Position numbers and translations under genes: made by a program
Shown here: positions 35,085 through 43,334 of the stretch, piece after piece
Position numbering within the stretch: the first letter of the stretch is position 1
Layout of the letters: each line of letters begins with the position of its first letter
The notes under the pieces: model-generated
The model's input: only the letters and a program-made list of their open reading frames with translations
What the model was told of the DNA's origin: nothing
Databases searched by the model: none
IMG/VR virus record: IMGVR_UViG_3300044878_000051
Coordinates: 30,031-94,030 of that record
DNA: 64,000 nt
Origin: a virus
Direction: 5' to 3' (one strand)

Positions 35085-35211
35085 TCCCCGTGCCAAGATT
35101 CGAACTTGGGACCTCCACCGGACCCTCGAGTTAAACCCCCTTCATTACCTAAGTAACTAATGGTGGAACTCAAAGGCCCGACAGTGTTCTAACCGACTGA
35201 ACTAAACGGGG
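35085..35211 (-). ncRNA. tRNA-like RNA with the anticodon arm extended into a long stem
   Basis: Acceptor CCCCGT/ACGGGG, D arm TAGTTCAGTCGGTTAGAAC, T arm CCAAG-TTCGAAT-CTTGG; about 50 extra nt in the anticodon arm. Confidence 0.75.
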
Positions 35212-38817: not shown

Positions 38818-38899
38818 GGTGGAACCACCGGGAATCAAACCCGATTAGCCCGATCGACCTTTCAGCCTATCAGTCGCTTTAACATTAAGCTATAGTCCC
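38818..38899 (-). ncRNA. tRNA-like RNA with a G3:U70 acceptor and a GAAA-capped anticodon arm
   Basis: Acceptor GGGACTA/TGGTTCC+A; D and T arms present; anticodon loop replaced by GGCT-GAAA-GGTC. Confidence 0.65.
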
Positions 38900-39164
38900 G
38901 GAAATGGCTCCGGCTTGCTCCCCACCGCTATCGTGGTTCACTAAACTCATGTGTAGCCAGACGACCCGCCGGAGAGGTCTTTAACTAGATGTACCAGTAA
39001 TCCTGAGGTTCCGAAGAAGGCAGGCACACGATGCAACTCCACTGGACTACGAGTAGGGTGATCCTTCCCCGCATTCGACGCGGGAATTAATGCTGAGGCG
39101 CGCCCGTCACCGACATTCGCTCAAAAGGCAAGTCTAATTAGGCGCACAGCAAAGGATCGTGAAA

Positions 39165-39250: not shown

Positions 39251-39256
39251 GTTAAA

Positions 39257-39376
39257 GCAGCCGGTGTCGTGCATCGAAGCACTGCTAGTTCCCGGACCGC
39301 ACTAGCTTTCCATTAACGAAGGCTGACGCGTTGTCAGCTATGGCCCTCGTTAATGACCTCCCAGAGGTACACCTGC
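39257..39376 (-). ncRNA. Putative multi-hairpin structured RNA
   Basis: Closing helix plus four hairpins fill the whole inter-tRNA spacer. Confidence 0.5.
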
Positions 39377-39382
39377 ACAAAC

Positions 39383-39543
39383 TGGCCCCGAGGGGTGGAC
39401 TCAAACCACCGACCTATCCGTTCAACCGACTCCGTTTCACGGGAGAGTTTAGGTTGCACTGGCACTGCCGACCCCACGCATTAGCGTTCATGTCGTGATT
39501 ACCAGTGGTCTCGGACTGTTCTATCAACTGAACTACCCAGGGG
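39383..39543 (-). ncRNA. tRNA-like RNA with an ~90-nt two-hairpin insertion in the anticodon loop
   Basis: D arm TAGTTCAGTTGATAGAAC, stem GTCCG/CGGAT, AGGTC variable loop, T arm GGTGG-TTTGAGT-CCACC, GCCA end. Confidence 0.75.
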
Positions 39544-40016: not shown

Positions 40017-40044
40017 AAAAAAAAAGGGTTCTCGAAAGAACCCC
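40017..40044 (-). terminator. Intrinsic terminator
   Basis: GGGTTCT-cgaa-AGAACCC hairpin with an A9 tract (U tract on the minus strand). Confidence 0.8.
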
Positions 40045-40058
40045 TAAGTTTTGAGGTG

Positions 40059-42180: not shown

Positions 42181-42372
42181 TCAGCCCATCCCGACACCAG
42201 AAGGACGGTTCTCGACCTGATGTTTCGCAGGATCGTAAACCACCTTCTCGTAGCAGTTGTGCCAAGGTTTTCCCAAACAGCAAGTGCAATGAAACGGTGA
42301 CGCCGCTGGTTTGCTCAGGAGTTCAATGACTCCGCACTTGTCGCAAGCGTATTCCAGCAGCGTGCCGCTCAT
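42181..42372 (-). CDS. Small Cys-rich putative zinc-binding protein
   Basis: CDKC...CTCC...WH; start overlaps the phuZ stop codon. Confidence 0.7.
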   Translation of the reverse strand: MSGTLLEYACDKCGVIELLSKPAASPFHCTCCLGKPWHNCYEKVVYDPAKHQVENRPSGVGMG

Positions 42373-43334
42373 TACAACACCAGGCCGTCGTCAGTAGTGG
42401 CAGCGTTGCCCACCAGATCGACAGCAGCAGCACGGCCATCACGGCGCAGGATGAAGTTGTCCAGAGTGGTCTGAAGACGCTCGTAAGTTTCGTTCAGGTT
42501 CTCGGTGGACACCACGAGGTGGACTTCGCTGACGCCTTCGATAGCGGTCTTGAAGTAACCGGTGCACGGATATTCCGGGATCGGCTCTTCCAGATGCTTC
42601 TGATCACGGTCGCTGTACAGCGAAGCGATGGTGATCGGGTCCTTGATGGCCTTGACGGCTTCAGGGTTGTAGAAGATGTCCAACATGGCCAGTTGTGCCG
42701 GCACGCTGGTCGAGTGGTTGAAACGCAGCCAGTTGGCAACGTCTTTGGTATCCAGCTCATCGTTCTGACGCGAGGTCAGGTAGCACAGGCTGGAGATGGC
42801 CAGGTGGAGTTGACCGTCGACTACCGAACGAGTGCAGTCGCCGCCGTTGTGGCGGTAGTGCATGACGATCGGGGTATCGACTTGCTTGGAGATGGCTGCC
42901 AGCGACTTGATGGTGTTCAGGCTGTTCTGTGCCGTGATGGTCGATTCCGAAGAACCCGCCAGCAGGACAACAACCGAGTGACCACGGGACGCCAGCTCTT
43001 TTGCCAGCAACGGGCCGATGACCGAACCCGAACCGCCGGATGCCGAGAAGACCACGATGTTGAAGTCTTCAGGAACTTGTTGCAGAAGGATCTGCTTGAC
43101 CGCTGCGGAGATCTGCGCGTGGTTCTCTTTACGCACTTTACCGGAGCCGTCGGTTTTGTCCAGGACGTAGATCGAGCTTTCGTCTTCGATGCCGGCCAAG
43201 TTGGAACGGCTGGTATCTACGAAGCTGACCAACGGTGTAGCGAAGCCAGGAGCTGGCGGACGACCGATGTAGGTTTTGACAATGTTCGTGCCAAGGCCAC
43301 CACAGCCGTACAGACGCACTTTACCTTGTTCCAT
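42372..43334 (-). CDS. phuZ: Tubulin-like spindle protein PhuZ
   Basis: GCGGLG, DTS, DGSGK, SASGGSGS tubulin signature and ELDTKD T7 loop. Confidence 0.95.
   Translation of the reverse strand: MEQGKVRLYGCGGLGTNIVKTYIGRPPAPGFATPLVSFVDTSRSNLAGIEDESSIYVLDKTDGSGKVRKENHAQISAAVKQILLQQVPEDFNIVVFSASGGSGSVIGPLLAKELASRGHSVVVLLAGSSESTITAQNSLNTIKSLAAISKQVDTPIVMHYRHNGGDCTRSVVDGQLHLAISSLCYLTSRQNDELDTKDVANWLRFNHSTSVPAQLAMLDIFYNPEAVKAIKDPITIASLYSDRDQKHLEEPIPEYPCTGYFKTAIEGVSEVHLVVSTENLNETYERLQTTLDNFILRRDGRAAAVDLVGNAATTDDGLVL

Follow-up and report, generated by a model that had tools for sequence, protein, structure and literature searches.

What is made from a gene that keeps the arms of a tRNA and carries a structured domain of some 90 nt in place of its anticodon loop? 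The question is raised by a 161-nt element at 39383-39543 on the minus strand of the window, that is, the 64,000-nt stretch of DNA analysed here (positions 30,031-94,030 of IMGVR_UViG_3300044878_000051, a 94-kb IMG/VR record estimated to be 34% complete). The window encodes a PhuZ tubulin (42372-43334), and its source is therefore a nucleus-forming jumbo phage; identity of this PhuZ to those of the nearest cultured phages, Xanthomonas phages RTH11 and LucasX, is only about 40%. The element forms the upstream end of a minus-strand RNA island spanning 34.8-39.6 kb. It is co-oriented with the tRNAs of the island and sits between a terminator-like site and a tRNA-Tyr gene. At this site (40024-40045, minus strand), some 480 nt upstream of the element, stands a strong hairpin accompanied by a T run; the preceding unit may end here and transcription of the RNA island begin. 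Neither ARAGORN with default settings nor the Rfam tRNA model, even at E<=10, makes any call on the element, and across the island and the corresponding loci of its relatives Rfam yields tRNA matches only (E<=10). No description of the element or of its domain was found in the literature searched.

The first-pass annotation had read the locus as a tRNA frame with a structured two-hairpin insert, and all parts of the frame were found where it had placed them. The acceptor 5′ strand CCCCUGGG (C-1 plus positions 1-7; 39536-39543) pairs with the 3′ strand CCUCGGGG (39386-39393), which is followed by an encoded CCA (39383-39385); the stem contains a U.C mismatch at 4:69 and may gain an extra pair, C-1:G73. 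The dinucleotide UA links the acceptor to the D arm GUUC-AGUUGAUA-GAAC (39518-39533), whose stem is invariant in an alignment of four homologues, and a single A links the D arm to GUCCG (39512-39516), the 5′ strand of the closing stem in anticodon position. Its partner is CGGAU (39416-39420), and homologue comparison supports the pairing. The variable loop AGGUC (39411-39415) is conserved in close relatives, and the T arm GGUGG-UUUGAGU-CCACC (39394-39410) is seen both in the sequence and by comparison. Between GUCCG and CGGAU, in place of the anticodon loop, stand 91 nt. They comprise hairpin H1 (39457-39507), built of helices P1 (39501-39507/39457-39463), P2 (39492-39495/39469-39472) and P3 (39485-39487/39476-39478), hairpin H2 (39424-39449), in which AACU-CUCC and GGAG-UC-GGUU flank an 8-nt loop, and the junction GAA (39421-39423), both A residues of which are invariant in seven out of seven sequences. 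The MFE fold of the single sequence is a cloverleaf with the two insert hairpins; its z-score (-1.6) is not significant alone, and support for the fold comes from comparison rather than from this prediction. The acceptor, D and T arms and the elbow pair 19:56 of a canonical tRNA are all present, as judged by MFE and covariation. The elbow pair, G19:C56 in the relatives, is replaced by A19:U56 in the window element, so that the elbow is kept and with it the ability of the frame to fold as a tRNA.

Through the neighbouring proteins we identified three related IMG/VR contigs (loci L002/L004, L005 and L006), whose islands are syntenic with that of the window at about 80% DNA identity. When the four close homologues, the window element included, were aligned to the tRNA plus two-hairpin model, 97.8% of cells were paired, and none of 500 shuffles was as good. 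Six pairs had changed on both sides, two of them in the acceptor and one each in P1, P2, P3 and the T arm; the second pair of the T arm reads G-C, U-G, U-A or A-U across the four sequences. At its 3′ end the insert holds a block of some 45 nt with almost no variation among the four. A covariance model of the whole element (R1) recovered one full-length copy per related record (173-194 bits), its other matches being limited to ordinary tRNAs and a second element of the island, at 35085. Constraints on the frame nevertheless look uneven, because L002 and L005 encode no CCA and the L002 acceptor has two mismatches at the stem base. The D arm, anticodon stem, T arm and encoded GCCA end had been described as intact; this is accurate for the window, but the encoded CCA does not extend to all relatives, of which five in seven have it.

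Other searches covered IMG/VR, the JGI metagenomes and cultured phages. When IMG/VR was scanned for exact matches to the pattern of the invariant 3′ block, no contig beyond the three known ones came up, the same type of scan over the JGI metagenomes gave 11 loci, all chance matches in coding regions and none a model match, and blastn against cultured phages produced just one 35-nt, T-arm-like match. The 3′ end of an L005-type copy and the spacer downstream of it are present on one contig from a soil metatranscriptome, with DNA carry-over as a possible source. Among the assembled contigs of sequencing runs, none joined across the insert; a '190 letters between' joint in one DNA contig was set aside, since an arrangement like that of L005, in which a further tRNA-like gene lies upstream, explains it. 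In L005 itself this gene (L005:13793-13885, plus strand) lies just upstream of the element; its anticodon arm is lengthened to about 16 bp and ends in a 9-nt loop, and both its leader and its 5′ end are similar to those of the element.

ARAGORN with default settings calls six tRNAs in the island. The Rfam set differs, comprising five of these six and one more at 38820-38899 (minus strand; 36.6 bits), on which default ARAGORN makes no call. A tRNA-like stretch at 39057-39158 (minus strand; acceptor GAUCCUU/AAGGAUC, T arm CCCGC/GCGGG) is called by ARAGORN at a lowered threshold only, as a tRNA-Gln with an 8-nt insert. In L002 a bona fide tRNA-Gln(UUG) is found immediately past the tRNA-Tyr gene (L002:8654-8732), a stretch without counterpart in the window. 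The spacer between the element and tRNA-Tyr (39251-39382, minus strand) contains several predicted hairpins (fold z -2.75), among them a 9-bp stem CAUUAACGA/UCGUUAAUG around GCUGAC-AACGC-GUCAGC. It is 84-95% identical in L002, L005, L006, G004 and G006, which exceeds the conservation of the domain, and is probably another structured RNA.

At 35085-35211 (minus strand) the island holds a second insert-bearing tRNA frame, with orthologues in records G001 and G003; when introns are allowed, ARAGORN reads it as tRNA-Ser(CGA) with a 49-nt intron. The resemblance to the element that had been reported for this frame is borne out in the 5′ half, where 22 of 29 positions are identical as against 14-19 for the other island tRNAs, but not in the 3′ half. 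A shared ancestor with different cargo, as had been proposed, is accordingly plausible for the 5′ half alone. A tRNA frame with an unrelated two-hairpin cargo is also present in RTH11 (L022:1501-1643, corresponding to OQ790161.1 75698-75840), whose record has no RNA annotation there, and in a related IMG/VR locus (L064:342-481). This cargo, GGGG-UUCRACU-CCCC plus a GNRA-capped hairpin, is conserved and folds with a z-score of -3.56. Cargo-bearing tRNA frames are therefore a recurrent feature of this phage family.

The comparison was widened to 19 IMG/VR loci taken from the PhuZ alignment, R1 being run on the 16 records not yet searched. A diverged copy of the insert was found in records G004, G005 and G006 (PhuZ identity 63-66%). 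In G004 and G005 the insert part alone was matched (model positions 29-126), and in G006 the match was full-length with most frame positions deleted in the alignment. The domains of the window clade and of G004-G006 share 56-67% pairwise identity. In the resulting alignment of seven sequences and 102 columns, 95.8% of cells are paired, a value reached by none of 500 shuffles and to be compared with 27-40% in slid controls, and 11 of 27 pairs have changed on both sides, with about three independent lineages behind this covariation. The absence from homologues and the lack of covariation that would have told against a structured insert are thus the opposite of what we observed, the insert being present and covarying in seven out of seven records.

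The domain is a three-way junction of a 5-bp closing stem, the long hairpin H1 and hairpin H2. In the closing stem a C-G pair becomes U-A in G004 and G005 (GUCUG/CAGAU). The first hairpin of the first-pass annotation, CACUGGU/GCCAGUG, proved correct and corresponds to P1 (7 bp, three double-change pairs), beyond which H1 continues through two further covarying helices, P2 (4 bp, all four with double changes) and P3 (one double change). The internal loop of H1, RUGA/GGR, is conserved, and the apical loop on P3 is variable (GNRA, UUCG or UAAU). A second hairpin does exist as had been claimed, but in another register: the proposed CAACC/GGUUG with CCGU-GAA-ACGG is 84.5% paired in the alignment, against 96.4% for the eight pairs of H2, two of which show double changes around a loop whose sequence varies across the clade. 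The short junctions of the domain carry invariant A and G residues. One column in the 3′ strand of the closing stem (column 98) covaries both with its stem partner and with a base of the H2 loop, and this double covariation, in three lineages, could reflect an alternative pairing. Of the alternatives considered, CCGU/ACGG is 89% paired, with one column covarying with two partners, and GAGAG/CUCUC is weak (77% paired).

A domain-only covariance model (R2) found exactly one copy in each of the seven records (91-107 bits), which form one clade of uncultured PhuZ-encoding jumbo phages. It found none in 15 other PhuZ-phage records (13 from IMG/VR plus RTH11 and LucasX), a set including three IMG/VR records estimated to be 100% complete and two complete cultured genomes. 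The domain matches no Rfam family at E<=10, and matches to the conserved junction sequence as an antisense within the window were no more frequent than expected by chance.

The domain of G004, G005 and G006 sits in a minimal frame, formed by a 6-bp acceptor to which the domain is joined directly, a hairpin of 4-5 bp and then A-CCA. The acceptors are GUCCUG/CGGGGC or CCUCUG/CGGAGG and covary (G-C to C-G, C-G to U-A). The hairpins (UCCC-GUAAUA-GGGA, ACUC-GUAAUA-GAGU and GUCGG-UAGAU-CCGAC) have no T loop of the canonical kind, and there is no D arm. In the same three records a full tRNA frame with one long hairpin in anticodon position lies 14 nt upstream of the domain (L072:1617-1752, L063:1501-1638 and L056:1501-1635, all on the minus strand). 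These upstream frames reach the Rfam tRNA threshold (36-45 bits), and their hairpin resembles H1 and has a loop-E-like NNUA/GAK internal loop; excising it would leave the loop UAGACCA, with A33. The 3′ half of the window element is identical to the G006 upstream gene at 32 of 33 positions, which makes this frame a far closer relative than the one at 35085, and the window element can therefore be described as that frame plus the complete domain. Two histories are possible: either a window-type ancestor was duplicated in tandem and the copies then divided the labour, or the cargo was swapped. Judging from the aligned sequences, the domain is the conserved unit and the frame is exchangeable. What has been retained around the domain in every case is an acceptor helix stacked on a T-type hairpin, usually with NCCA.

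We consider it probable that the element is a non-decoding small RNA gene, a natural tRNA scaffold for a stable RNA. It would be transcribed together with the co-oriented tRNA island. Host RNase P would recognise the acceptor/T-arm stack and cut the 5′ end, host tRNA 3′-end enzymes would trim or repair the 3′ end to NCCA, and the product would be a compact RNA of about 160 nt, resistant to exonucleases. In such a molecule the frame would provide defined ends and stability, and the three-way-junction domain of about 90 nt that replaces the anticodon loop would be the functional part, its conserved internal-loop and junction nucleotides most likely offering a binding surface to a protein or another RNA. 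Since the domain persists in related viruses whose tRNA part has been reduced or exchanged, that part most likely has the task of excising and protecting the small RNA. The stack of the T-stem loop on the acceptor is what RNase P measures (PMC4919913), and the retention of this stack and of NCCA hence supports the scaffold. The minimal frames stack about 10-11 bp only, compared with 12 in a tRNA, and for them processing by RNase P is an assumption.

The scaffold has to be weighed against the possibility that the gene does decode, as an intron-containing tRNA-Gln(UUG) whose insert is removed by a cut-and-rejoin pathway of undescribed kind, such as is suspected for the 'enigmatic' tRNA introns of Lak megaphages. 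ARAGORN with introns allowed makes precisely this call and gives the intron a length of 84 nt; a standard tRNA-Gln, such as stands beside tRNA-Tyr in L002, is missing from the window, and phage tRNA introns of unexplained mechanism are on record (PMC6784885). The rebuilt anticodon loop, however, would be A32-G33-UUG-AA. Any 7-nt loop obtained by removing one continuous insert has G33 in place of U33, because the 5′ flank starts with AG (AGAG...) and the 3′ flank ends with GGUUGAA. U33 is near-universal in tRNA anticodon loops. The UUG itself is not conserved, being UCG or UCU in G004 and G005, and L002 carries a normal tRNA-Gln next to the element. Rfam finds no Intron_gpI match at E<=10, and group I introns measure about 200 nt or more, far above the 84-91 nt of the insert. 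No bulge-helix-bulge motif is seen at the junctions, as judged from the covariation-supported fold. RtcB, an Rnl2-family ligase and a splicing endonuclease were not found in relatives estimated to be 86-100% complete, and PF01974, PF01139 and PF09414 gave no match in G000-G006, to the extent that each was searched, with the 100% complete G004 among these records. Above all, the domain also occurs in the G004-G006 frames, which cannot yield a tRNA upon excision, and it is therefore the product and not an intron. Taken together, these observations make an intron very improbable.

Readings in which the tRNA shape itself acts fare somewhat differently. The whole molecule could be a tRNA mimic or decoy, its L-shaped frame and enlarged 'anticodon' domain titrating or blocking a tRNA-binding enzyme, such as an anticodon nuclease of host defence, a modification enzyme or a synthetase. 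The complete cloverleaf of the window clade, with its elbow pair maintained, fits this idea, as do the other anticodon-altered frames (the 35085 element and the extra L005 gene with its arm of about 16 bp) and the upstream full-frame genes of G004-G006 that pass the Rfam tRNA threshold. Yet in three of the seven genomes the domain persists without a D arm or a canonical T loop, so the conserved activity needs no tRNA shape, and the seven-sequence alignment of the domain shows no conserved 7-nt loop of the anticodon type at any place. A decoy could thus apply to the window clade, which has kept the elbow, but would not account for the minimal frames; overall we regard it as distinctly unlikely. 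More improbable still is that the element acts in cis within the polycistronic transcript of the tRNA island, as a processing, stability or timing signal rather than as an RNA of its own. The location of the element, co-oriented between the terminator-like site and tRNA-Tyr, would suit such a role, and the downstream spacer is structured too and even better conserved, but the acceptor-type terminal helix and the NCCA encoded in five of seven copies mark the ends of a separate molecule, and a signal would not require so elaborate and strongly covarying a domain. A miniature tmRNA, to which the first-pass annotation had likened the element and which would be an aminoacylated RNA acting on ribosomes, is hardly credible. 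It would account for the acceptor stem, the T arm and the CCA end, and there is a superficial likeness between the minimal frames and the tRNA-like domain of tmRNA. A tmRNA, however, needs G3:U70 and a tag reading frame; the 3:70 pair is C:G in the window and in the minimal frames, the small size and near-complete pairing of the domain leave no room for the tag frame, the tmRNA mode of ARAGORN (-m) finds no gene, and Rfam gives no tmRNA match at E<=10. As for a decaying tRNA pseudogene broken up by junk DNA, the acceptor mismatch and the two further mismatches and missing CCA of L002 could be signs of decay, but covariation contradicts this reading: every helix shows compensatory changes, the domain is present in single copy in all seven clade members, and the close relatives show hardly any variation in the 3′ block of about 45 nt. 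We give it next to no weight.

If the element is a tRNA scaffold for a stable RNA, it is conceivable, although on balance unlikely, that its domain represents a new class of phage effector RNA. The interchangeable tRNA module would borrow host tRNA maturation, and possibly also the tRNA exit route from the phage nucleus, and would deliver the three-way-junction RNA to the cytoplasm, where the domain would bind and neutralise some factor of the host, perhaps a protein of RNA-directed defence or of translation control. Were this the case, the tRNA-like stable RNAs of T4 and T5 would belong to one general strategy. The occurrence of the same covarying domain in full and in stripped frames separates a 'delivery' module from a 'cargo' module, and from the comparison of full and minimal frames one can predict the parts required for processing as distinct from those required for function. 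Nucleus-forming jumbo phages hold islands of such RNAs with differing cargos; genes of this class are either overlooked in standard tRNA and Rfam annotation or mislabelled there as intron-containing tRNAs.

Stable tRNA-like RNAs were recognised in the tRNA clusters of phages as early as the 1970s, and the family described here provides a clean comparative handle on them. T4 rnaC/rnaD (NC_000866.4 70908-71171), annotated in the record as 'small, stable RNA', and T5 RNA1 (NC_005859.1 30501-30644), annotated as 'tRNA-like stable RNA with unknown functions', lie like the element among co-oriented phage tRNA genes. T5 RNA1 and T4 rnaC also fold, as the element does, with a T arm and an acceptor-like terminal helix around a body that is not a tRNA. 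Their bodies, however, have a different fold, and homology to rnaC is not detectable with R1 (filters off, 9.2 bits, E 0.11). T4 rnaC/rnaD and T5 RNA1 are hence analogues in design class, not homologues. The element further differs from them in belonging to a nucleus-forming jumbo phage and in that one body is seen both in a full and in a minimal frame.

YrlA and tmRNA offer a further parallel, being modular like the element, with a tRNA-like part joined to a second structured module. The YrlA RNA ends in the Ro-binding stem, its acceptor being closed, whereas the ends of the element are at the acceptor stem, which is the opposite topology; no Rfam match to YrlA, bacterial Y RNA or tmRNA was obtained at E<=10. 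In the Lak megaphages, 'enigmatic' tRNA introns have been described, large inserts of conserved sequence and of no recognised intron class (PMC6784885); they are the other case in print of phage tRNA inserts that lack an explanation. Those inserts interrupt otherwise typable tRNAs of which intron-less versions exist (PMC6784885), whereas the element has no restorable anticodon loop and, unlike them, its insert survives without a tRNA.

The parallel in design that had been drawn for the element, an engineered tRNA-scaffolded aptamer, held up well: the arms are kept, the insert is closed by a helix, the insert is conserved and the frame is exchangeable. In the engineered scaffold of Ponchon and Dardel, foreign RNAs become stable in E. 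coli by being treated as tRNAs; the scaffold is meant to be recognised by the tRNA enzymes of the cell and to shield its cargo from degradation (PMC3753655). Like that published design, the element retains acceptor, T and D arms and has a helix-closed insert replacing the anticodon stem-loop. Unlike the engineered scaffold, it is natural and under selection, and its relatives dispense with the D arm.
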